From: Candidatus Berkelbacteria bacterium
GTDB lineage: Bacteria > Patescibacteriota > UBA1384 > DTJR01
DNA: 64,000 nt
Assembly (NCBI GenBank): GCA_026397175.1
Contig: JAPLVK010000021.1
Span: forward strand, 56,989 to 120,988
Reading direction: 5' to 3'
How positions within the stretch are numbered: position 1 is the first letter of the stretch; each line of letters starts with the position of its first letter. The translations under genes were made by a program, and so were the position numbers. A model generated the notes under the pieces. The model ran no database searches. It had not been told where the DNA came from and was given only the letters and a program-made list of their open reading frames with translations. Below are positions 9,260 through 63,647 of this stretch, one piece after another.

Positions 9260-10102
9260 ATGAACTCCAACAAAGTAATTGATACGCATTGTCATTTGAA
9301 TTTCAAATCATTTCAGGATGATTTTATTTTAGTTGCTAAAAAAGCACGGGAGTCGGGAGTTGAAAAAATAATTATTCCCGGTTCGGATTCGCAGACATCT
9401 TTTCAGGCCCTTGAAAACGCAAAAGCAATTAATCTCGCATTGTCATCCCGACCAGGTTTGGGGGTGGAACCCAAACCTCAGAAAATGTGGAGGGATCTTC
9501 CCCTTTTTGCCTACGCGGCTGTTGGAGTTCATCCGATTCACACCGACAGGAACGGATTCGAAACGATCGAGAAATTGGCGGAACTTCCGGAGGTAGTAGC
9601 GATCGGCGAAACGGGGCTCGATCAATTTCATAATCGAGATAATATCGCCGAACAGTTGGAGTTGCTCGGTAAACATGTTGATCTGGCACTCAAGATAAAT
9701 AAGCCGGTTATTTTTCACAATCGAGAATCGGATGCAGAGTTTTTGACATTTCTTAAATCGCTGCAGAAATTGCCGAGAGGTGTTTTCCATTGTTTTTCAA
9801 GCGATCATCATTTTGCAAAAGAAATAATCGAAATGGGATTTATGATTTCATTTACGGGGAATATAACTTGGGGTAATAAGAAGCTGAAAAAAGTAATAGA
9901 GAGAACGCCGCTTGAACGCATTATGATCGAAACCGATTCACCCTATCTTGTGCCGGAACCATTTAAATCTCAAGGCGTTGAACGAAACGAGCCGGCATAT
10001 GTTCTGGAAGTTGCCAAGAAAATTGCCCAAATTAAAAATATTAAGTTAGAAGAAGTTTGTAGCCAAACCACCCAAAACGCGATTGAGTTTTTTGGACTTT
10101 AA
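9260..10102 (+). CDS. tatD: TatD-family metal-dependent hydrolase (DNase)
   Basis: VIDTHCHLNF…GVHPIHT…AIGETGLD…IFHNRES…FHCFSSD…ETDSPYL, which are TatD signature residues. Confidence 0.85.
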   Translation: MNSNKVIDTHCHLNFKSFQDDFILVAKKARESGVEKIIIPGSDSQTSFQALENAKAINLALSSRPGLGVEPKPQKMWRDLPLFAYAAVGVHPIHTDRNGFETIEKLAELPEVVAIGETGLDQFHNRDNIAEQLELLGKHVDLALKINKPVIFHNRESDAEFLTFLKSLQKLPRGVFHCFSSDHHFAKEIIEMGFMISFTGNITWGNKKLKKVIERTPLERIMIETDSPYLVPEPFKSQGVERNEPAYVLEVAKKIAQIKNIKLEEVCSQTTQNAIEFFGL

Positions 10103-10282
10103 ATTTTATTGACATTCGCGAGATCCGTTTTAGGAATATTCAATTATGGATATTTGATTTCGTGTACCTTTTTCTCGATCGAGAAAAAGGTACACGAAAG
10201 TTCTGATATAAGTTGCAAAATTTGGCACTATTTTGATTATATTTTAGATCGAAGATTATCTTTTTAATTAAAAAACAAAACG

Positions 10283-10318
10283 GCCCGTCTCGAAAAATCG
10301 AGACGGGCCGGTGAATCT
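10283..10318 (-). terminator. Rho-independent terminator for the minus-strand gene ending at 10324
   Basis: On the minus strand, hairpin GGCCCGTCTCG-ATTTTT-CGAGACGGGCC is followed by GTTTTGTTTTTT. A second perfect inverted repeat (GTGTACCTTTTTCTCGATCGAGAAAAAGGTACAC) lies at about 10163-10196. Confidence 0.7.
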
Positions 10319-10323
10319 AGGAG

Positions 10324-11145
10324 CTACTGTCGTGCCAAAGGGTCAACCAACCCGGGCATCATGTCAATGCGATAACCGACCCACTCGAGTCGGGTAGCCG
10401 GCTGTACTTCATAGAAACGCTTGCTGACCAGACGGTCCACAGTCAGTTCCGCGAGGATGCTCGGTGATTTCTTGTTATCACGCATCCCGTAGAAACTGTT
10501 GCGAATCCGCCACAACATATGGTCAATGTGTACGCGATGCTCATCGGGGTTTTCCCCGGGACCGGAAACAATGTGTGCAGCGAGGTTAGAGATCTCGCCA
10601 AAGACGGGATGGCTATCCACGACATCATCACAGGTGTTGAGGGTTTCGCTGGTGAGTAGATCCGCCAAAAAGTCGGGCGGATAGAGCGCGTATCTGTTCC
10701 CGCTATCTGTGAAGTAATGTTTCCGATCCCTCGGAAGGTAGATCCAGGCGAGCGATTCGAAGACGCCGAGCAGCATGCCAGCCAGATACTCGGTCCCCCA
10801 GAATTTTGATGGCCACTTGTCGCTTGGTTCGATGATGGGATTGCATAGTCCGCGCAGCACTTGCCAATCGTTTGTGGCAACAGTGCACATAAGGCACAAG
10901 CCGGCGACATCCTCCGTTTCGTTTGTGGCCAGCATCATGCTCGTGATTGCTTGCTCGACCGGGAACTCATCGAGTGATACTGCATCCCAACCATCGCGCA
11001 GCGCCTTGAACACGCTAGTTAACAGCGCTTTGCCTTGTGGGTCTTGTGCTAGCGTTGTGTCCCCACTGGTCTCGTAGGCGTTCACCAGCTCGACCAGTGT
11101 TTCGACTCCACCTTTGCGACCAAACTGTCTCACATCCATGGTCAT
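10324..11145 (-). CDS. Hypothetical protein in a GC-rich island (no recognisable domain)
   Basis: 273-aa ORF at about 55-58% GC, in a locus of about 35% GC, with its own terminator and promoter region. I recognise no motifs in it. Confidence 0.55.
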   Translation of the reverse strand: MTMDVRQFGRKGGVETLVELVNAYETSGDTTLAQDPQGKALLTSVFKALRDGWDAVSLDEFPVEQAITSMMLATNETEDVAGLCLMCTVATNDWQVLRGLCNPIIEPSDKWPSKFWGTEYLAGMLLGVFESLAWIYLPRDRKHYFTDSGNRYALYPPDFLADLLTSETLNTCDDVVDSHPVFGEISNLAAHIVSGPGENPDEHRVHIDHMLWRIRNSFYGMRDNKKSPSILAELTVDRLVSKRFYEVQPATRLEWVGYRIDMMPGLVDPLARQ

Positions 11146-22436: not shown

Positions 22437-22859
22437 TCATGGGCCGGTGAACTGGACACGGAAACATAGTGTCCAGATCGCTCGATCTTTATCTGCGGCG
22501 AAGATTGCGCTAATCCAGCCCTCGCGGGCCGAACCGGCACTGATTCTATAACCGCTCTCGCTGCGTTCAACCTTGAGACCGGGCGAAGCGAGAACGACAA
22601 GGGGTGTATTTCCCTCGAATAATGCCACTCCCTCGGCGGGGTACCATGTCCTGTACCATCCTGCCATCTTGATCTCAAGCTGGCCTGTAACCAGCTCGGA
22701 TTCCCCGGGATTGGAAGGTGTGCCGACCAAAATCGGGTCGGCATAGTACCCCCGTGCCCGCTCTGTCATTGGCAGCATTCTGCCGACTTGGATCCCGCTC
22801 GCCTGTGTCGTAGTTATGAAGCAGGCGAGTACGACAAAAATCATCGCGATTATCTTCAT
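22437..22859 (-). CDS. Small secreted protein in a GC-rich island (signal peptide, unknown function)
   Basis: The likely start is the ATG at 22859, 7 nt after GAGGAAG. Signal peptide MKIIAMIFVVLACFITTTQASG. About 58% GC. The ORF-track start at 22868 is a GTG two codons upstream. Confidence 0.55.
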   Translation of the reverse strand: MKIIAMIFVVLACFITTTQASGIQVGRMLPMTERARGYYADPILVGTPSNPGESELVTGQLEIKMAGWYRTWYPAEGVALFEGNTPLVVLASPGLKVERSESGYRISAGSAREGWISAIFAADKDRAIWTLCFRVQFTGP

Positions 22860-23093
22860 TTCAAACACTTCCTCGTTGGAAGATTACAGGGCAACATCTA
22901 GCGCCCTTAGAAATAAGACAGCTCATTTCTAAAAGAACAAGATAAATTACTATACCATAAAAACCCCAAAATATCAACCTGATTATAGCTTTTTGATGGT
23001 CTTAACGAAAGCTTTTAAGTCTCAAACTTGTATTTAGAAATGGAACTTGGGCTTGCATTTCAATTTGTGGTATCATATATGCGAGGAGGATAA

Positions 23094-43186: not shown

Positions 43187-43246
43187 AATCCTGAACCCAC
43201 CACCTTGAAAGAAGGAGTGGGCAGGCAATAAAAGGAGGTGCTGACC

Positions 43247-43880
43247 GTGGGTGACACCACGCTCGGCGAAGCGCTCCGGCAGATAGCTGGACCGCTGAAA
43301 GATCTGCACGAGAAGCTGTCTGGTGAGGAAGGGCTTGTGTGGCTGGAGAAGCTGAAGAAGTTTCTTCGCAAGGAGAACCCCTGGGCCGAGGTGCAGAAGG
43401 TGGTTGTGGCTTTGCTCAAGTTCGTCAAGACGGTCGAGCTGCCGGCGGTCGGGGCATTCAAGCCCGAAGATCACTTCAAGGTCACTCCCGAGCGGGAACG
43501 CAAGACCGCCAAGGTGGTCATCGGCTATGTCAGCGATAATGTCAAGGCGCTCATCAAGGGCAGGTTGGAGCCGGAAGAGGCACAGGCCACTATCCGTATT
43601 CACGAACTCTGCCAGGCGTCCGTAGACGACCCGATTCTGGCCGAGCTAGGTGAGAATGTCAAGACGGGGCTCAATCGGATGTTCCAGATAATAGAGGAGC
43701 AAGGCCGTGGCCAAGAGGGCGACCTTCTGGTTGACGGCCGTGCCAACATCTTCTACATCGAGGGTACCGATTGGGCGGTCCTCTGCGACTGGCGCGCCGG
43801 CCCGCGGCTGGAACCTCTACGCCAGTCCGGTCTCTTCTCCGCGCAGTTGGAGCGCTGTCTACCGGGTCTTCTCCCGCTGA
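43247..43880 (+). CDS. DGR target (variable) protein, GC-rich; C-terminal VR. Reading frame disrupted or ambiguous by a 1-nt indel inside the VR
   Basis: GTG at 43247 sits 8 nt after AAAGGAGG. It is in frame with the AAC codons of the TR up to about 43804. After a 1-nt insertion relative to the TR, the TR-equivalent frame reads GWNLYASPVSSPRSWSAVYRVFSR and stops at 43878-43880. The ORF-track frame instead reads through to 43996. Confidence 0.6.
43771..43877 (+). repeat. DGR variable repeat (VR)
   Basis: Aligns to TR 44245-44353 with about 20 mismatches, every one at a TR adenine (A to C/T/G), no non-A substitutions, and a single 1-nt insertion near 43805. A GGGGC-TTTGT-GCCCC hairpin lies 20 nt downstream (43896-43910). 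Confidence 0.85.
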
Positions 43881-44244
43881 TTCTCTGGTATTTTGGGGCT
43901 TTGTGCCCCCTGTATCCGAGCCCCCCTTGTCCCTGTGACCCTTTGAAATCCCGCCTTTGGCGGGAAAGTAGAAGGGTCACTTTTCTGTTAAAATAAAAAT
44001 GAAGTTTGTGAAAGGCAACGGCTAGCCTTCGACCTTGCTCGGGCCAGGCGGCTTTTGCCCACAACTTTAGATTTTTGTTACAGAGAGTTGCTTTGGGTAC
44101 GCCTTGAGCGAGAATGGTTGCAAAAATCTCAAAAAATGAAGAGAATCGGTGCTTCCCATCAAGAGATTTTAGATCTCAATTAATATTCAGCGGAGCGATG
44201 TTGTATTTTGCCCGCAGTGATTATGAACGGCGGGTGGCACAAAC

Positions 44245-57753: not shown

Positions 57754-58455
57754 ATGACCGAAAAATACAGACAATTTGCAGCAGGACAAAATGCAGTGAA
57801 TAATTTGCTCTCGGGCAAATATTCGCTGACTCGGGCCATGAAACCACCGGCCAAGAAAATTCTTGGCTGCATAGACGACGGAATCGAAGAAGCGCAAAGC
57901 AGGGCGGCGGGATCGTACATTCTTCTCGGGGAAGACGAAGCGATGAAGTTGGTTTGGCAAAACGGCTTTGAGTACATCGGATTTCACGATGACTGCGGAG
58001 CTGTCAAGAAATACCTTGAAGATAAGGGTGTTTTCGAACCATCGTCCGAGCAAGTAAACCAAGAGTCCAAACGGTGGGCGAAGCGTTTGGCTCAACTCAC
58101 GAAATGCAAAGCCAAAAAGATGGAATTGACTCGCGGTCATCATCACGAGGCGCGCATTGCATACTACGATGGCACTGGCAAGATGACCAGCACGATGGGG
58201 CTGCCCAAGGGATTTATTATTTCAAGGGGAGTTTTGCGCCGCGACTACGCATGTTCCGAGATGGTAACGGCAACCGATATCGCCTTCAACCATGGCTTCA
58301 ACGAACTATATTCTCCAGAACGCTCGTTTATTTGGGCGGCTCTCGGCAAAGATCAAAACCACGCCGCAGAGCTTGAAGGGGAACTCAAACCCATACTTTC
58401 TCGTCTCACGCATTTTGAGTTGGGAGCGATCAAGGTCATCGCGATTTCTCTCTAG
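57754..58455 (+). CDS. Hypothetical protein with beta-carbonic-anhydrase-like Cys…HxxCG arrangement (very tentative)
   Basis: LGCIDDGIEE … FHDDCGAVKK resembles beta-CA CxDxR / HxxCG metal-binding motifs but lacks the Arg. Intermediate GC. Confidence 0.3.
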   Translation: MTEKYRQFAAGQNAVNNLLSGKYSLTRAMKPPAKKILGCIDDGIEEAQSRAAGSYILLGEDEAMKLVWQNGFEYIGFHDDCGAVKKYLEDKGVFEPSSEQVNQESKRWAKRLAQLTKCKAKKMELTRGHHHEARIAYYDGTGKMTSTMGLPKGFIISRGVLRRDYACSEMVTATDIAFNHGFNELYSPERSFIWAALGKDQNHAAELEGELKPILSRLTHFELGAIKVIAISL

Positions 58456-58507
58456 CGTCTCTGCCACCAAATCCAACCTACGAGGTCGGATTTAGAGGTG
58501 AGATTCT

Positions 58508-58627
58508 TCACAGGCGATCGGAGTCCTTATTTTTTTAAGGATCTCGATCGCCTGTTTTGTTATACAAATTTTCCGATCGGAAAATTTGTATAACAAAACA
58601 GGCGATCGAGATCCTTAAAAAAATAAG
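58508..58627. repeat. 120-bp perfect palindrome (60-bp arms, no spacer) centred on CCGATCGG
   Basis: ATCGGAGTCCTTATTTTTTTAAGGATCTCGATCGCCTGTTTTGTTATACAAATTTTCCGA|TCGGAAAATTTGTATAACAAAACAGGCGATCGAGATCCTTAAAAAAATAAGGACTCCGAT. It contains multiple CGATCG sites and TGTTATACAAA (DnaA-box-like, 7/9 match to TTATCCACA). Confidence 0.85.
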
Positions 58628-58639
58628 GACTCCGATTGG

Positions 58640-58900
58640 CAAAACTGCTGACAGCTAAGAGATGTTAGTGGTAGATATATAAATTTTCTGTACGGAAAAA
58701 TCGTATATTTTAACAGTTTTATTTTTTAATTTATATTTTTATTTATGATCACATTTATACAAAAAGAAACGATCGTTCCGTTTTGTATAACAGAATTTAT
58801 ATTTTTTGTTTTTAAAATTTTTAAATTGCAAAAATTTGCATTGGGGGTTTAAATTTGATTCAATAAAATACTCACCTGATATGGTGAGAAGTCGCAACTT
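58640..58900. other. Extremely AT-rich tract (about 20% GC) with degenerate copies of palindrome sub-motifs
   Basis: TTTTCTGTACGGAAAAATC (58672-58690) is a degenerate copy of TTTTCCGATCGGAAAA. TATACAAAAAGAAACGATCGTTCCGTTTTGTATAAC (58760-58795). A TTGCAA-17-TTAAAT promoter for the downstream operon at about 58827-58857. Confidence 0.5.
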
Positions 58901-58924
58901 GACATCGAAATGGAGGCAAGAGAA

Positions 58925-59707
58925 ATGAACGGTAATTTTTTGGGTCGTTTGTCATTGAAGGATATCGTCGCGATGACCGAGGTGGTATCTCCAGAGATCA
59001 TTGCCGAGGAGATTGTCCAAGGTGGTCTGGTTCATATCCGCAATGTGGCTGATGGCGAGGAGGCGTATCACTACTCGAGCGGTAACTGGGGACCGATGTA
59101 TGTAACTGTCAAAGGGGGGTGCAGCAACCAGAACTTGTTCAAATTTATGGCACGCCAGCTTTCTCTGCGTGTCAGCGACATCACCGACTTCGATTTCGTT
59201 GCTGGGCTTGTAACTGGTGGCGTTCCGCCCTCGATCTACCTGCGGGACTGGGTGCAGGAAATGCAAGACAGGGAAATTCCCTGGGTTTACATTCGGGACA
59301 CACGCAAGCTTGGCGGCACCAAGGAGCATGTGACCGGACTCTATATGCCGAACGGCCAGCGTAGTTTGTTCATACCCGAGGGCGCAGTTGGGTTAGTGGT
59401 GGAAGAACTGGTGAACTATGCCAACTCGACTACCAATGGGGCTATTTTGCTCCGGAGTGAAGAGTGTAAGTGTGGCTGTCGCCGGGGTGTAACCATCTTG
59501 GATTATGACAACCCTGTAGCGCACAAATATCGTGCCAAGTACAATGTCGAACTGACTAGCGTGGTCAAGATGACCGAAGTGCTGGATGCTATCCAGCGGA
59601 TTGGTCTCTACTCTGACGATTTGGTCGAGGATGCCCGCTGGTCACAACGCGACCCGCAGGAATGGATGGGTTTCTACGGTCTCGAGAAGACGGAACTCAA
59701 GAAGTAA
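58925..59707 (+). CDS. Type-I phosphoribosyltransferase-like protein with degenerate PRPP loop, GC-rich
   Basis: YHYSSGNWGPMYVTVKG (compare OPRT FxLSSGxxSPxYxD), VAGLVTGGVPPS, and a PRPP-loop position reading LVVEELVNYANS instead of VxDVxTTGGS. GGAGG RBS. The likely start is 58925; the ORF-track start is 58910. Confidence 0.5.
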   Translation: MNGNFLGRLSLKDIVAMTEVVSPEIIAEEIVQGGLVHIRNVADGEEAYHYSSGNWGPMYVTVKGGCSNQNLFKFMARQLSLRVSDITDFDFVAGLVTGGVPPSIYLRDWVQEMQDREIPWVYIRDTRKLGGTKEHVTGLYMPNGQRSLFIPEGAVGLVVEELVNYANSTTNGAILLRSEECKCGCRRGVTILDYDNPVAHKYRAKYNVELTSVVKMTEVLDAIQRIGLYSDDLVEDARWSQRDPQEWMGFYGLEKTELKK

Positions 59708-59756
59708 CCATAGGTGCGTGATTAAGCGCCTGAATGATTAATAGGGATGTGTAAAC

Positions 59757-60503
59757 ATGGATCGTGACGCGATGGTTAAAACTCTGCCACTACTTTTCGT
59801 AGCACTCGACGACTCGTCGCTACCGAAGGTGATGGAGCGTGCCAGTACCGTTACACAGGTGACTGGCAATTACGGCTTCAAGGTCAACCTCGATGCTATG
59901 CTGGGTGTCGGTGTCGAGAACGCGCTCAATGCTGTTGCCCAGTTCGGGAAGCCGATCTTCGCCGACTTCAAGATGTACAATGGTGCTCGGACGATGTCCG
60001 AGATGGTGCAGGCGGCCGCTCGCAGTGGTGCTGTGCTCACCAATGTGTTTGCCGGTAATGCTCCCAACCTTCTCCGGAAAGTGGCCATAGCGGCCTCTGG
60101 TGATGAGGAGCATAAGGTGCCACCGATCTTGGTCTATGGCATCGGCCCCTTGACACACCTAACTGACGAGGACTGCCAGTGTATCTACGGCTGCAATTTT
60201 GAAGCAGCCACAGTACGCCTGGGCGAAATCACGGTGAAGGCAGGTTTGGATGGTTACATTGGCCCGGGCAGAATGAACCGTGCCTTGAACATCTTACAGC
60301 TCCCGCTTCTCAACCCGGCAGTCAGGCCTGACTGGTACGAGGACCCGAAGGCCAATGACCAGGAGCAGACGGTAACGCCAACCCAAGCGATTGTCGTTGC
60401 CGAGAAAAAGGTTGTACTCGTCTGCGGCAGCCCAATCTTCAAGAGCCCAGACCCGGAAGCGGCGCTCAAGAGGATTCTCGACGAGATCGCCAGAGCCGCC
60501 TAA
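59757..60503 (+). CDS. OMP-decarboxylase-superfamily (ribulose-phosphate-binding barrel) protein with non-canonical catalytic motif, GC-rich
   Basis: LLFVALDD…GFKVNLDAML…IFADFKMYNGART (DxK kept, downstream Asp replaced) …LVYGIGP…VVLVCGSPIFKSPDP, resembling the PyrF/KGPDC/HPS family. Confidence 0.5.
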   Translation: MDRDAMVKTLPLLFVALDDSSLPKVMERASTVTQVTGNYGFKVNLDAMLGVGVENALNAVAQFGKPIFADFKMYNGARTMSEMVQAAARSGAVLTNVFAGNAPNLLRKVAIAASGDEEHKVPPILVYGIGPLTHLTDEDCQCIYGCNFEAATVRLGEITVKAGLDGYIGPGRMNRALNILQLPLLNPAVRPDWYEDPKANDQEQTVTPTQAIVVAEKKVVLVCGSPIFKSPDPEAALKRILDEIARAA

Positions 60504-60537
60504 TCGGCCAAACCGCCTGACACAAGGAGGAATCAAT

Positions 60538-60717
60538 ATGTGTCTGGCTAATCCGTCAGGTCTTACCTCGCGCGACACAGCGAGTAGTATCTCCGACATT
60601 GCGAAGACCTGCTGCGTCTGTGGCTACGAACTCGACCCGGGTGACTATGATCCCGAGAAGAGCCCATTTGCCCAGAAGCACAAAACCAGGGTTTTATGCT
60701 CCACTTCGAGCAAGTAG
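60538..60717 (+). CDS. Small Cys-containing protein (59 aa) ending the GC-rich operon
   Basis: MCLANPSGLTSRDTASSISDIAKTCCVCGYELDPGDYDPEKSPFAQKHKTRVLCSTSSK. The ATG lies 8 nt after AGGAGG. Confidence 0.4.
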   Translation: MCLANPSGLTSRDTASSISDIAKTCCVCGYELDPGDYDPEKSPFAQKHKTRVLCSTSSK

Positions 60718-60730
60718 CTTACCATTCAGG

Positions 60731-60770
60731 GCCAGCACCCGCATCTTATCGGGGTTGCTGGCTCTTTTTT
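60731..60770 (+). terminator. Rho-independent terminator of the GC-rich operon
   Basis: GCCAGCACCCG-CATCTTAT-CGGGGTTGCTGGC followed by TCTTTTTTT. Confidence 0.75.
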
Positions 60771-60777
60771 TACCCCT

Positions 60778-60858
60778 CACTTTATAAACTTTTAACTTTA
60801 CGAACTTTATGAACTATCTTTTTGTTGACATCCTTTCAAAAATTTAGTATTCTCATTC
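60778..60858 (+). promoter_or_regulatory. rRNA promoter: UP-like ACTTTATAAACTTTTAACTTTACGAACTTTATGAACT motif plus TTGACA-17-TATTCT
   Basis: The motif is at 60778-60815. TTGACA is at about 60825, with a -10 element 17 nt later. The 16S gene begins about 300 nt downstream. Confidence 0.55.
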
Positions 60859-61312
60859 TTGGAGGCAATTTGGCTTACAATTTTTGACATTAGATAGAAC
60901 ATAAAGCAGAGCAAGCCCAGCTTTCTGCTGGGCTATTATAGTCAAAAAAAACCAAAAGCCCTGAAATTTGACAAATGGATTTCCTGTTAACCCATTAGAC
61001 CTGGGAGCATTTAAATATGCATTAACGGGAAAAATCATCGGTTTGACAAAACCAGATGAGGAAGTGTTGAGGACACTTTACAGAAAAAATCCTCGTCAAT
61101 TCAAATTGAATTAAAGAGCCAGAATTGCTTTCAAGGCAATTCACTCAAATTCTTTACTAAGAGTTTGATCCTGGCTCAGGATGAACGCTAGCGGTGTACC
61201 TAAAACATGCAAGTCGTACGCTTGTAAAAGCGTGGCGAACGGGTGAGTAACGCGTGGGAATCTGCCTCAATCCGGGAAATACCTTGCCGAAAGGTGAGTT
61301 AATGTCCCATGA

Positions 61313-61739
61313 GATGGTAGCTAGTCATTGGTAGTTAGTTACTGGTAAAATGAGTTCATGATTTATAATGGACTCGATGTCTATAAACGAGCATACAAGT
61401 TGGCAATAGAAATACATAAGTTCTCCTTAGAACTTCCAAGATATTTACATAATGATATCGGAAGTCAAATAAGAAGATCCTCAAGATCGATTCCTTCTCA
61501 AATAGCAGAAGGTTTCTCTAGAAATAAATCAGATAAAGACAAGAAAAATTTCTTAAGAGATGCTCTTGGCTCAAACGAAGAAATGCTCTTCAATCTCAAG
61601 TTTATGAGAGATACGGATCTTATAAATTTAGAGAAGTATGAGTATTTCTTTAGCGAGTATGTTATCTGCGGAAAGCAGCTAATGAACTTGATGAAAAGTA
61701 TAGATACCAGAAACTAGCGACTAGCGACTAGTTACCATC
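61313..61739 (+). other. Intervening sequence (IVS) in 16S rRNA: 14-bp extended stem (GATGGTAGCTAGTC / GACTAGTTACCATC) closing a roughly 400-nt loop that encodes a protein
   Basis: The stem halves lie at 61313-61326 and 61726-61739. Flanking rRNA sequence is continuous with the conserved 16S 5' domain. Confidence 0.65.
61358..61717 (+). CDS. Four-helix-bundle protein of the rRNA-IVS family, encoded inside the 16S IVS
   Basis: YKRAYKLAIEIHKFSLELPRYLHNDIGSQIRRSSRSIPSQIAEGFSR is the family signature (…GLxSQIRRAAVSIPxNIAEG…). Same family as the Avd-like ORF at 44354-44749. Confidence 0.7.
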   Translation: MIYNGLDVYKRAYKLAIEIHKFSLELPRYLHNDIGSQIRRSSRSIPSQIAEGFSRNKSDKDKKNFLRDALGSNEEMLFNLKFMRDTDLINLEKYEYFFSEYVICGKQLMNLMKSIDTRN

Positions 61740-62279
61740 AAAGCTCCGGCGGATTGAGAGGAGCCTGCGTCCTATCAGCTTGTTGGTGGGGTAAAAGCCT
61801 ACCAAGGCAACGACGGGTAGCTGGTCTGAGAGGATGGTCAGCCACAATGGGACTGAGACACGGCCCATACACCTACGGGTGGCAGCAGTTAGGAATCGTA
61901 CACAATGGGGGAAACCCTGATGTCGTGACACCGCGTGAAGGATGAAGGTTTTCGGATCGTAAACTTCTTTTCTATGGGAGGATTATGACTTAACCATAGG
62001 AATAAGCATCGGCTAACTACGTGCCAGAAGCCTCGGTAATACGTAGGATGCGAGCGTTATCCGGTCTTATTGGGCGTAAAGAGCGCGTAGGCGGCCCGGC
62101 AAGTCCAATCTTAAATCCCATGGCTCAACCATGGAGCTGGATTGGATACTACCTGGCTTGAACACTTGCAGGGGTATGCGGAATCTACGGTGTAGGAGTA
62201 AAATCCATTGATATCGTAGAGAACACCAATGGCGAAGGCAGCTTGCTAGGCATTCACTGACGCTGAGGCGCGAAAGCGT

Positions 62280-62313
<34 letters not shown>

Positions 62314-62816
62314 ACGCCGTAAACGATGCGGACTAGGTATTGGGATCATCGACCGTCCTTGTACCAAAGCAAACGCGTTAAGTCCGCCGCCTGGGGAGTA
62401 CGAGCGCAAGCTTAAAACTCAAAGGAATTGGCGGGGGCTCGCACAAGCGGTGGAACATGTGGTTTAATTCGACAGTAAGCGGAGCACCTCACCAAGGTTT
62501 GACATCTATGGAATCCTGATGAAAGTCGGGAGTGCCCGCAAGGGAGCCGTAAGACAGGTGCTGCACGGTCGTCGTCAGCTCGCGGCATGAGCTGTTCCGT
62601 TAACTCGGGACACGAGCGCAACCCCGATCGTCTGTTAAATTTCCACACGTGTTACAATGGCCGGTACAGAGGGTTGCAATATCGCGAGATGGAGCTAATC
62701 CCTAAAGCCGGTCCCAGTTCGGATTGGAGTCTGAAACTCGACTACATGCAGTCGGAATTGCTAGTAACCGTAGATCAGAACGATCCGGTGAATACGTCCT
62801 CGAGCCTTGCACACAA

Positions 62817-63647
62817 ATGTAAAGACGCATGGCAGTTTGATTAACTAAGTCGTGGAAATCGACTCCTCCGATACGCCATCGGAGCGTAGCTTAAAGCAGG
62901 TCCAACCTCGTGAGAGATGGACTAGAGGGCTAAATGGCAATTTGCAGCGGGCAGGCGAAAACCTGTACTGACTTATGTTAGGCGGTTGTGGCCTAGGGAA
63001 AGTACAATAAAAAGGTTGCTCGATGTAGAAAATAGCTAATCAAATGATCCATGGAGATCTTGCCTATGATAACGCAAACAAGGGCAAGAAGTCAGCCTGT
63101 TCATAGTAGACGCTGTGGTATAATGTATTTACCATGACGCAGCGTCAAAGGGACAGACCTAAGATTCTGTCACCAGAATATCTAGTCGGCTTAACTGATG
63201 GCGAAGGTTGCTTTTATGTTAACATTCGCCCGCCGCGATCAAAAAATGGCTTGCCTCAAGTAGAATTTCATTTCTACATTAAGTTAAGAGGCGACCACTT
63301 GGATCTTCTAAAAAAAGTCCAAAAATCTTTTGGTTGCGGAGCAGTGTATCGCCAAGCCGAGAAGCGAGCAAATCATAGCGAATGCTATCGGTTTGAAATA
63401 AACTCGCGAAAAGATATAAATCGTGTACTAGTACCGTTTTTCTTGCACTATCCCTTGCAGGGTCCGAAATCAAATGATTTTGCGACCTTCTGTAAAATTT
63501 TCAACCTTGTTTTGCAAGGTGAGAATAGTACAGAAAAGGGACTAGTTAAAATTAAACGGTTGAAAGAAAAAATGAATCTTGGGGCCCGCCGAGTGTGGAA
63601 AATCCGCTTGCTCGGTGGCAACGTGAAGTAGCGTTAACTATCACAAT
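62817..63647 (+). mobile_element. Insertion of 831 nt (probable intron) in 16S between …CCTTGCACACA and CCGCCCGTCA… (E. coli position about 1400), carrying a LAGLIDADG homing endonuclease
   Basis: Conserved 16S sequence breaks at 62816 and resumes at 63648. Insertions at this site with homing endonuclease ORFs are known in CPR 16S genes. Confidence 0.65.
63134..63631 (+). CDS. LAGLIDADG-family homing endonuclease (single-motif, 165 aa)
   Basis: YLVGLTDGEGCFYVNI is the LAGLIDADG motif. The size resembles I-CreI-type homodimeric enzymes. Confidence 0.75.
   Translation: MTQRQRDRPKILSPEYLVGLTDGEGCFYVNIRPPRSKNGLPQVEFHFYIKLRGDHLDLLKKVQKSFGCGAVYRQAEKRANHSECYRFEINSRKDINRVLVPFFLHYPLQGPKSNDFATFCKIFNLVLQGENSTEKGLVKIKRLKEKMNLGARRVWKIRLLGGNVK

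Follow-up and report, generated by a model that had tools for sequence, protein, structure and literature searches.

Just upstream of a ribosomal RNA (rRNA) operon, Candidatus Berkelbacteria bacterium (GenBank assembly GCA_026397175.1, 129-kb metagenome-assembled contig JAPLVK010000021.1, positions 56,989 to 120,988 of the forward strand; this stretch of 64,000 nucleotides is referred to below as the window) carries a GC-rich block that raises a question about its two principal genes, g1 and g2: do they encode working enzymes of pyrimidine nucleotide synthesis, decayed copies of such enzymes, or something else? A preliminary description made from the DNA alone read the block as a three-gene operon, completed by a small open reading frame (ORF), g3, in which a degenerate phosphoribosyltransferase (PRT)-like protein and a protein of the orotidine 5'-monophosphate (OMP) decarboxylase superfamily could form an undescribed nucleotide-modifying, nucleotide-salvage or defense-related module. 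We find that g1 and g2 are most likely a highly diverged version of orotate phosphoribosyltransferase (OPRT; PyrE) and OMP decarboxylase (OMPDC; PyrF) that is largely restricted to bacteria of the candidate phyla radiation (CPR) and to archaea of the DPANN group and is occasionally found in viruses, and that they probably constitute a functional, horizontally mobile module leading from orotate through OMP and ending at uridine 5'-monophosphate (UMP). We observed homology and a matching fold, conservation throughout the family, coupled and sometimes fused genes, neighbors in nucleotide metabolism, and purifying selection; we infer the substrates.

Relationship of g1 and g2 to PyrE and PyrF

Neither gene is canonical, as the preliminary description had held. 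Against existing sequence models, g1 scored 12.4 bits on Pfam PF00156 (cut-off, 26.3), 41.5 on TIGR00336 (106.8), and 41.7 on NF001729 (245), passing none of them, and g2 passed Pfam PF00215 (60.6 bits; cut-off, 27) but remained below PRK00230 (84.1; 193) and TIGR01740 (56.8; 92.3). Profiles built from the two families matched solved enzymes in the PDB over their full length, that of g1 an OPRT (best, 4ohc; E = 5e-25) and that of g2 an OMPDC (3ru6; E = 2e-31). With the family alignments as input, AlphaFold2 gave models with predicted local distance difference test (pLDDT) scores of 92 for g1 and 97 for g2. When these were compared with the PDB by using Foldseek, the top 32 matches of g1 were OPRTs or UMP synthases, save for one chain deposited as "phosphoribosyltransferase" (2p1z), with the Burkholderia cenocepacia structures 4ohc (E = 2e-15) and 9e5g first and Gram-positive enzymes next; TM-scores against solved OPRTs were 0.75 to 0.85 when normalized to the solved structure and 0.64 to 0.68 when normalized to g1. 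The top 50 matches of g2 were essentially all OMPDCs (lowest E, 7.5e-17), the best being 3ldv, 1dbt, and 1eix, with TM-scores of 0.86 to 0.88 normalized to the solved structure and 0.78 to 0.83 normalized to g2. It had been anticipated that, if both proteins strongly matched genuine PyrE and PyrF over their full length and had intact catalytic residues, this locus would simply be a laterally acquired pyrEF pair; the full-length matches are there, at the E values and TM-scores (0.75 to 0.88) just given, but not every catalytic residue has been retained.

The g1 protein shares with PyrE of the long subtype (B. cenocepacia 4OHC/9E5G, Bacillus anthracis 3M3H, and Streptococcus pyogenes 2AEE) the type I PRT fold, an N-terminal hood, a C-terminal helical extension with a P-x-x-W end, the motifs SG..P.Y and G-G-(I/V)-P, a flexible loop reading Y-(I/V)-R-x-x-x-K-x-G, and, ahead of the loop that binds phosphoribosyl pyrophosphate (PRPP), an acidic pair. 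It is, however, just 15 to 19% identical to these enzymes, and it differs from them in the PRPP loop itself, E-E-L-V-N-(F/Y)-A-x-(S/T), in its additional invariant residues, and in falling below Pfam and NCBIfam thresholds. The family signature comprises YSSGNxGPxY, F(V/I)AGxVTGG(V)P, YIRDTRKxGGxKE, VVEELVN(Y/F)AxS/T, and DPxxW. Among 81 nonredundant homologues, N164 is present in all 81, E161 and K128 are present in 80, and E160 and R124 are present in 79; R39, Y50, K63, R127, E134, and R177 are also invariant. The flexible loop Y-I-R124-D-T-R-K128-x-G-G aligns with Y-V-R-K-K-P-K-G-F-G of 4ohc, and R124 and K128 are presumably the pyrophosphate-binding Arg and Lys (R99 and K103 in Escherichia coli/Salmonella OPRT numbering); orotate-contacting residues vary even between solved OPRT subtypes. 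In the PRPP-motif region, g1 has a hydrophobic strand, the acidic pair E160/E161, and a loop V-N164-(Y/F)-A-x-(S/T) in place of x-T/S-x-G-x-T/S. The preliminary description had correctly read VEELVNYANS at this position but had called the protein degenerate for want of T-G-G-T/S, a term that does not suit a loop that is invariant in approximately 80 homologues and under purifying selection; moreover, since 4ohc, a genuine OPRT and the closest solved one, has VEDLTTDSRS and likewise lacks T-G-G-T, the missing motif is weak evidence against OPRT function. Tandem double-PRT versions of g1, 360 to 440 amino acids (aa) in length and with a degraded PRPP loop in the N-terminal copy, occur mostly in DPANN archaea (among the related loci compared, designated by L numbers, these are exemplified by L016 7968-9194 and L034 1426-2739 and by L035, L038, L053, and L054).

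The g2 family is defined by the motifs F-x-D70-x-K72-x-x-N75-G76-x-R78-T79, TVLT133-H134, R190-P, and G-S225-P-I. Among 73 homologues, K42, D70, K72, and T79 are present in all 73, R78 in 72, N75 in 71, P187 in 68, and S225 in 67, and the catalytic core as a whole (D18, K42, D70, K72, T79, and R190) is present in 72 to 73; N44, D46, and H134 are also conserved, the base-contacting position 133 is Thr or Ser, and position 98 is Tyr in 40, Trp in 17, His in 10, Phe in 4, and Cys in 2, with F98 in the window. With the bacterial PyrF enzymes (E. coli 1EIX, Bacillus subtilis 1DBT, Vibrio cholerae 3LDV, and Campylobacter jejuni 3RU6), g2 has in common the (beta/alpha)8 barrel, and its D18, K42, D70-x-K72, T79, T133, P187, and R190 match D22, K44, D71-x-K73, T80, the Thr of LT(S), P189, and R192 of the E. 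coli enzyme. It departs from them in having DxKxxN for DxKxxD, GxRT for IPNT, Tyr, Trp, or Phe for His99, and GSPI for GRPI, with N44, D46, and H134 as new invariants. An apparent loss of the base-binding Ser127 (LTS to LTH) was considered and rejected, as Thr133 occupies that position after the alignment is re-registered; we take Thr133-His134 to align with Ser127-His128 in the MSH of Methanothermobacter thermautotrophicus and with the LTS of B. subtilis. The landmarks ALDD, DFK, NGART, and GSPI are present as initially read. The accompanying claim that NGART replaces the catalytic HDIPNT stretch was correct insofar as the substitutions are real and fixed family-wide, but they amount to one catalytic change, Asp75' to Asn, together with Arg78, and D18, K42, D70, K72, and T79 are kept. 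As judged from the alignments, the real catalytic deviation of g2 is this Asn with the new Arg78' and the new invariant Asn44 and Asp46.

An active-site signature for OMPDC, D, K, D, K, D, H, P, R, has been derived from five diverse characterized enzymes, with D20, K42, D70, K72, D75', H98, P180, and R203 in 1dvj and D22, K44, D71, K73, D76, H99, P189, and R222 in 1l2u (PMC3584854, Table 2). At these eight positions, g2 has D18, K42, D70, K72, N75, F98, P187, and S225, five of the eight and hence an incomplete signature; a phmmer alignment with E. coli 1eix places D70/K72 on D71/K73, N75 on D76, F98 on H99, P187 on P189, and S225 on R222. Asp75' is a member of the OMPDC catalytic tetrad K42-D70-K72-D75', and Arg203 binds phosphate, with the R203A substitution raising the Km approximately 1,000-fold and affecting the kcat little (PMC12395307). 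The g2 family does retain R190 (in VRP), a second phosphate Arg of the bacterial type that is missing from the archaeal enzyme. Within the ribulose-phosphate-binding-barrel superfamily, only OMPDC is reported to have the Lys of the second signature position and the Pro of the seventh (PMC3584854), and g2 has both as K42 and P187. This distinguishes it from 3-keto-L-gulonate-6-phosphate decarboxylase and 3-hexulose-6-phosphate synthase, which also belong to the OMPDC suprafamily and with which it shares the barrel and the D-x-K on strand beta-3; the profile match to 3-hexulose-6-phosphate synthase is far weaker (9lj9; E = 1e-4 over 30 residues) than that to OMPDC, and there is no sugar-metabolism context.

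Since the deviant residues of both proteins are nearly invariant in 73 to 81 homologues, they represent a conserved family signature and not decay. In a comparison with a sister genome (L040; GCA_964489115.1), in which dS was saturated, the ratio of nonsynonymous to synonymous substitution rates (dN/dS) was approximately 0.12 (g1) and 0.24 (g2).

Distribution, pairing, and gene neighborhoods of the family

A search of 5.8 billion proteins returned just 38 relatives of g1 and 45 of g2, the weakest seven of the latter being canonical PyrF. A nonexhaustive census by peptide-pattern scans, which for GTDB covered one genome per species and took neighboring genes from naive ORF calling, placed the g1 family in 37 loci. 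Its CPR hosts are Nealson-, Berkel-, Falkow-, Giovannoni-, Uhr-, and Moraniibacteria, Saccharibacteria, and Paceibacterota, and its DPANN hosts are Aenigmat-, Woese-, and Nanoarchaeota; a few metagenome-assembled genomes are labeled otherwise. The pair is carried by complete chromosomes too, for example, CP179887.1 (Nealsonbacteria), OY969116.1 (Berkelbacteria), and CP066683.1 (Woesearchaeota); a further carrier, complete or nearly so, is JACPJU010000001.1 (Aenigmatarchaeota). Some members have already been named OPRT or OMPDC by the JGI and NCBI pipelines. A literature search on OPRT or OMPDC of CPR and DPANN organisms, new functions in the OMPDC suprafamily, and D75N found no paper on this clade in a library that was incomplete.

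The functional coupling of the two genes proposed initially is borne out by their arrangement: g2 lies directly after g1 in 38 of 49 nonredundant g1 loci (39 with L004, in which a naive ORF start is the sole problem) and is missing from 7, 3 of which are at contig ends. The genes are separate in the window and in most loci, often overlapping, and are fused into a single UMP synthase-like ORF in two (L047 5649-7004, 451 aa, and L048 6748-8253, 501 aa), both on IMG/VR contigs labeled "GVMAG." In these fusions the OPRT domain is N terminal, the same order as in the bifunctional UMP synthase of eukaryotes and giant-virus metagenome assemblies; the best viral structural matches, from BFVD, were "Uridine 5'-monophosphate synthase" of Marseillevirus LCMAC103 and of Fadolivirus, at 11 to 17% identity. 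Four IMG/VR contigs carry the pair. On a 43-kb phage-like contig with a GC content of 0.66 (L042 5994-8738), marked by PHROG matches (phrog_5931 and phrog_11053) and an RtcB ligase, g1 and g2 flank an ORF of 68 aa and a ParB-like protein of 340 aa (phrog_5931, with a DGHHR motif), which look like an insertion into the pair.

Genes of pyrimidine metabolism adjoin the pair in relatives, always beside the OPRT-like gene, and are absent from the window itself. Dihydroorotate dehydrogenase (PyrD) is adjacent in L002, L003 (as a PyrD-PyrK fusion), L016, and L034; PyrI lies two genes upstream in L053; and ThyA and DHFR are directly downstream in L043/L044. Other neighbors are NDK (L002), IMPDH/GMP reductase (L019), PurA/PurB (L054), a NUDIX protein (L025), and a secreted nuclease (L016). 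The PyrD, PyrI, ThyA-DHFR, and NDK neighbors point to ordinary pyrimidine nucleotide supply over exotic chemistry. In L016, from an aenigmatarchaeon, the double-PRT g1 and a 127-aa ORF are followed by another OMPDC-like variant, F-A-D-L-K-I-S-H-G-A-D-T (9632-10360), with PyrD coming next. Judged from such sequences, this OMPDC-like lineage appears to have an unusually plastic beta-3 motif in DPANN.

HD-superfamily phosphohydrolases recur as well. A small Mesh1/HDDC3-like hydrolase (profile match to PDB 3nr1; E = 4e-11) stands beside the pair in nine loci, in distant branches of the family tree that are both bacterial and archaeal; examples, of approximately 170 to 200 aa and missed by Pfam, are L023 571-1143, L028 10573-11097, L016 7375-7875, L035 500-1036, L033 7420-7983, L038 6553-7107, and L021 9334-9960. 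A YfbR-like 5'-deoxynucleotidase homologue is present in L003, L040/L041, and L049, another HD protein is present in L051, and in L002 and L036 the pair adjoins a phosphatase of the IMPase family.

Organization and probable origin of the GC-rich block

X, g1, g2, and g3 are four codirectional ORFs between nitroreductase and DUF4395 genes on one side and the 16S rRNA gene on the other (Table 1). Their GC contents are 0.50, 0.525, 0.565, and 0.539, respectively, against a window mean of 0.41 (standard deviation, 0.05) and 0.32 to 0.37 in both spacers that flank the block, and the GC content at third codon positions (GC3) is 0.55 for X, 0.63 for g1, and 0.67 for g2, against 0.31 to 0.45 for most genes of the window. 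The compositional anomaly noted in the preliminary description is real, although 55 to 58% against approximately 35% somewhat overstated it, and the island is larger than was then supposed, as X is likewise GC rich and is syntenic in sister genomes.

Table 1. Features of the GC-rich block and its surroundings (window coordinates)
Feature	Coordinates	Strand	Description
X	57754-58455	+	233 aa; GC-rich conserved hypothetical protein; NTZ65_04120
AT-rich spacer upstream of g1	58456-58924	+	Approximately 470 bp; GC 0.32; promoter-like sites, two copies of a palindromic motif, 120-bp palindrome
g1	58925-59707 (longer start, 58910)	+	260 aa; OPRT-like type I PRT; NCBI NTZ65_04125, "hypothetical protein"; NCBI start, 58925
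g2	59757-60503	+	248 aa; OMPDC-like (beta/alpha)8 barrel; NCBI name, "orotidine 5'-phosphate decarboxylase"
g3	60538-60717	+	59 aa (MCLANPSG...CCVCG...), Cys containing; orphan ORF in GC-rich transcript tail
Intrinsic terminator	60728-60771	+	Stem-loop 60728-60765, then T-run TCTTTTTTT; predicted end of the g1-g2(-g3) transcript ahead of the rRNA promoter

The native-looking ribosome-binding sites and terminator reported initially were confirmed: GGAGG lies 8 nucleotides (nt) ahead of the g1 ATG and AAGGAGG lies 7 nt ahead of the g3 ATG, and the stem-loop (dG, -23 kcal/mol; z = -3.3) was equaled in stability by none of 200 shuffled sequences and is followed by a T-run. The placement just upstream of the rRNA genes also stands, as the 16S rRNA gene starts at 61153 and has a promoter-like sequence of its own, TTGACA-17-TATTCT, at 60825-60853. 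The proposed g1 promoter, TTGCAA-17-TTAAAT, does occur at 58826-58854, but it resembles the consensus weakly and a consensus scan did not list it; the top match of that scan upstream of g1 is TTAACA-16-TATATT at 58710-58737, and the scan found no excess of promoter-like sites over shuffled sequence (5 versus 4.9). A palindromic motif, TTATACAA-N18/20-TTGTATAA, with the core ...CGATCG..., occurs upstream of g1 at 58560-58593 and 58755-58790, exactly twice in the 64-kb window against zero copies expected by chance; the second copy sits just 3' of the best promoter-like site, an operator-like placement, and no copy of the motif was found in the 51 related loci compared. The same spacer contains a perfect 120-bp palindrome (58517-58636) of two 60-nt arms, 100% complementary and loopless. 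It occupies the exact slot of an HD-hydrolase gene in the sister genomes L040 and L049 and could be either a genuine hairpin-forming element left by deletion or rearrangement or a fold-back assembly artifact.

The nitroreductase-DUF4395-X backbone is common to the window and these two sister genomes. In L040, X is followed by a YfbR-like HD gene, g1, and g2 and then by the 16S rRNA start as in the window (53 nt; 98% identity), and g1-g2 is even more GC rich than in the window, at 0.62, with flanks at 0.45. An HD gene is absent from the window, and blastx and tblastn revealed no trace of one in the spacer at 58456-58924. L049 has X, a Cas2/PaaX-like gene, and an HD gene and then, in the same slot, a different GC-rich (0.61) OMPDC-like gene at 10341-11045, after which the contig ends; this gene is of the archaeal type, with extra residues in DxKxxD (F-D-L-Q-K-A-G-T-D-I-P-E) and 40.7 bits on PRK13813 (cut-off, 208). 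A neighbor-joining tree of g2 recovered the family as monophyletic and set it apart by a long branch from the single canonical PyrF group included, with the window clade (the window, L040, L051, and P0040 to P0044) sister to a high-GC clade together with the phage-like L042; this sister clade is native to genomes of approximately 65% GC (L001, a 1.3-Mb contig, and L043). Across 48 loci, the GC content of the pair exceeds that of the flanks in 37, by up to 0.19. The imported look described initially thus agrees with both composition and tree, and an ancestor of this Berkelbacteria clade probably acquired the pair horizontally from a high-GC lineage or its phage. We infer the direction of transfer from a neighbor-joining tree and from high-GC contigs without taxonomic labels.

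X always sits between DUF4395 and the pyr-like genes, and the sister genomes preserve its synteny with the pair; it may be linked to the g1-g2 module. Besides the window protein, it has four homologues at approximately 50% identity in the 5.8 billion proteins and a 25%-identical ORF in L040. Its invariant residues (C39, D41, H78, C81-G-A, H131, and H180-G-F) could form a metal site; the idea of a beta-carbonic-anhydrase-like protein (CxD...HxxC) found no support. There was no match to X among Pfam, NCBIfam, or PDB profiles, and PADLOC and PHROG gave none either. As for g3, the ORF named as the third gene of the operon is present, with a good ribosome-binding site and a foreign-like GC content, and tblastn and blastx detected no similarity to it in 54 related loci, among which L040 lacks it; it has no Pfam, NCBIfam, PADLOC, or PHROG match. 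It is an orphan, because a search of 1.84 billion representative proteins yielded only its self-match, and we reject it as a conserved third component of the module and regard it as a candidate gene outside that module.

Three more isolated GC-rich genes lie in the window at 10324-11145 (-), 22437-22868 (-), and 43238-43996 (+), with GC contents of 0.55 to 0.59 and GC3 values of 0.62 to 0.72; none has a Pfam match, the rest of the genome is at 0.35 to 0.45, and the genome seems to be dotted with single foreign-looking orphan genes. The 16S rRNA gene (61153-62851) measures 1,699 nt against a 1,533-nt model; an ORF inside it, at 61358-61717, encodes a "23S rRNA-intervening sequence protein" (PF05635; 88 bits). 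Downstream of it, an ORF for a LAGLIDADG endonuclease (63134-63631; PF00961; 77 bits) probably lies within a 23S rRNA gene that Rfam did not call.

Competing explanations and implications for CPR and DPANN symbionts

If the pair is an orotate-to-UMP module, g1 would act as a dimeric type I PRT of the long OPRT subtype, converting orotate and PRPP to OMP and pyrophosphate, and g2 would act as a dimeric TIM-barrel decarboxylase, converting OMP to UMP through the retained D70/K72, K42, D18, and T79'. Its charge network would be rebuilt, with Asn75' and Arg78' standing in for Asp75' and Glu/Asn78' and with Asn44 and Asp46 as new invariants, and Ser would replace the phosphate-gripper Arg of GRPI while Arg190 of the bacterial PGxR is retained. 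Orotate would come from the host or the environment or, in relatives, from dihydroorotate via the adjoining PyrD, and in the window a joint transcript of both genes would start in the AT-rich spacer and end at 60728-60771, just ahead of the rRNA promoter.

Several observations weigh against this interpretation. Both proteins fall far under the NCBIfam equivalog cut-offs; the g2 family has three fixed signature changes, Asp75' to Asn (71 of 73), His98 to Tyr, Trp, or Phe (His in 10 of 73), and Arg203 to Ser (67 of 73); the PRPP loop of g1 has an invariant Asn164 where OPRTs carry Thr or Ser, and its acidic pair is Glu-Glu, where OPRTs have Glu-Asp (those compared) or Asp-Asp; and the commonest neighbor of the pair, in approximately 14 of approximately 50 loci, is an HD-superfamily phosphohydrolase. 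Because plain UMP synthesis does not explain this last association, it keeps alive a rival in which the OPRT and OMPDC scaffolds have been neofunctionalized for another carboxylated base or for an altered ribosyl donor or nucleotide, such as a 2'-deoxy or a 2'- or 3'-phosphorylated species, with the HD enzyme performing a third step and a nonstandard nucleotide or nucleoside as the product. We regard that scenario as unlikely. The fixed changes in g2 do fall at substrate-contacting sites (Asp75' to Asn, Arg78' beside the ribose-binding Thr79', and the lost gripper Arg), as do the Thr-to-Asn164 change in the 5'-phosphate loop and the Glu-Glu pair of g1; Mesh1/HDDC3-like enzymes, which are among the recurrent HD hydrolases, remove 3'-pyrophosphate or 2'-phosphate groups; YfbR-like 5'-deoxynucleotidases and IMPase-family phosphatases are also neighbors; and one copy of the pair is on the phage-like contig L042. 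Against these points, the PyrD, PyrI, ThyA/DHFR, and NDK neighbors suit ordinary pyrimidine supply, g2 still has the catalytic Asp70/Lys72, Lys42, Asp18, and Thr79 as well as the base-contacting Thr/Ser133, genuine solved OPRTs such as 4ohc vary in the PRPP loop too, and the gene context suggests no candidate alternative substrate. A changed substrate for the pair has a low likelihood in our estimation, and it is rather improbable that g1, g2, and the HD phosphohydrolase found in approximately one-quarter of loci form a three-enzyme route to something other than UMP in ultra-small symbionts and their viruses. In such a route, Asn75'/Arg78'/Ser225 and Asn164/Glu-Glu would be specificity determinants for a carboxylated base other than orotate or for a deoxy or extra-phosphorylated PRPP analogue, and these organisms and viruses would build a different nucleotide or nucleoside.

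It is very unlikely that the pair is best understood as a phage-derived auxiliary or counterdefense module, a mobile cassette that boosts or alters the nucleotide pool during infection and was domesticated in CPR genomes. The closest non-Berkelbacteria clade includes the 43-kb L042 contig with its PHROG matches, four IMG/VR contigs have the pair, and the GC excess over the flanks in most loci suggests frequent transfer; however, tblastn of g1 and g2 against 50,697 GenBank phage genomes gave no match, neither protein matched PHROG or PADLOC, carriers are mostly cellular CPR and DPANN genomes, including complete chromosomes, with housekeeping neighbors, and the IMG/VR contigs labeled "GVMAG" are possibly misbinned. 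This proposal concerns origin rather than biochemistry, in any case, and is compatible with UMP synthesis. The suggested role in antiphage defense was not upheld, as PADLOC models gave no match at E <= 0.01 to g1, g2, g3, X, or two HD neighbors. Scarcely tenable is the view that these are inactive relics, decaying copies of laterally acquired pyrE and pyrF. Scores under the family cut-offs and the loss of one catalytic-tetrad residue and of the gripper Arg might suggest as much, but the deviant residues are near invariant in 73 to 81 homologues from two domains of life, dN/dS is 0.12 to 0.24, gene order is conserved and fusions exist, and the structural models are very confident; this conservation largely refutes the relic view.

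If g1 and g2 do make UMP from orotate, many CPR bacteria and DPANN archaea, usually described as incapable of nucleotide synthesis, would possess a short salvage route from orotate or dihydroorotate. Threshold-based annotation misses half of that route, because g1 is labeled "hypothetical protein," and metabolic reconstructions of these symbionts may under-call their pyrimidine capacity. It would also follow that an entire OMPDC clade dispenses with two residues, Asp75' of the "invariant" K-D-K-D tetrad and the phosphate-gripper Arg, and has gained Arg78' and an Asn44/Asp46 pair. Such a clade would be a natural experiment on an enzyme that ranks among the most proficient known, and the roles of all these residues would be open to reciprocal swaps. 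If, instead, UMP is not the product, the pair would belong to an undescribed nucleotide pathway common to ultra-small symbionts and some viruses.

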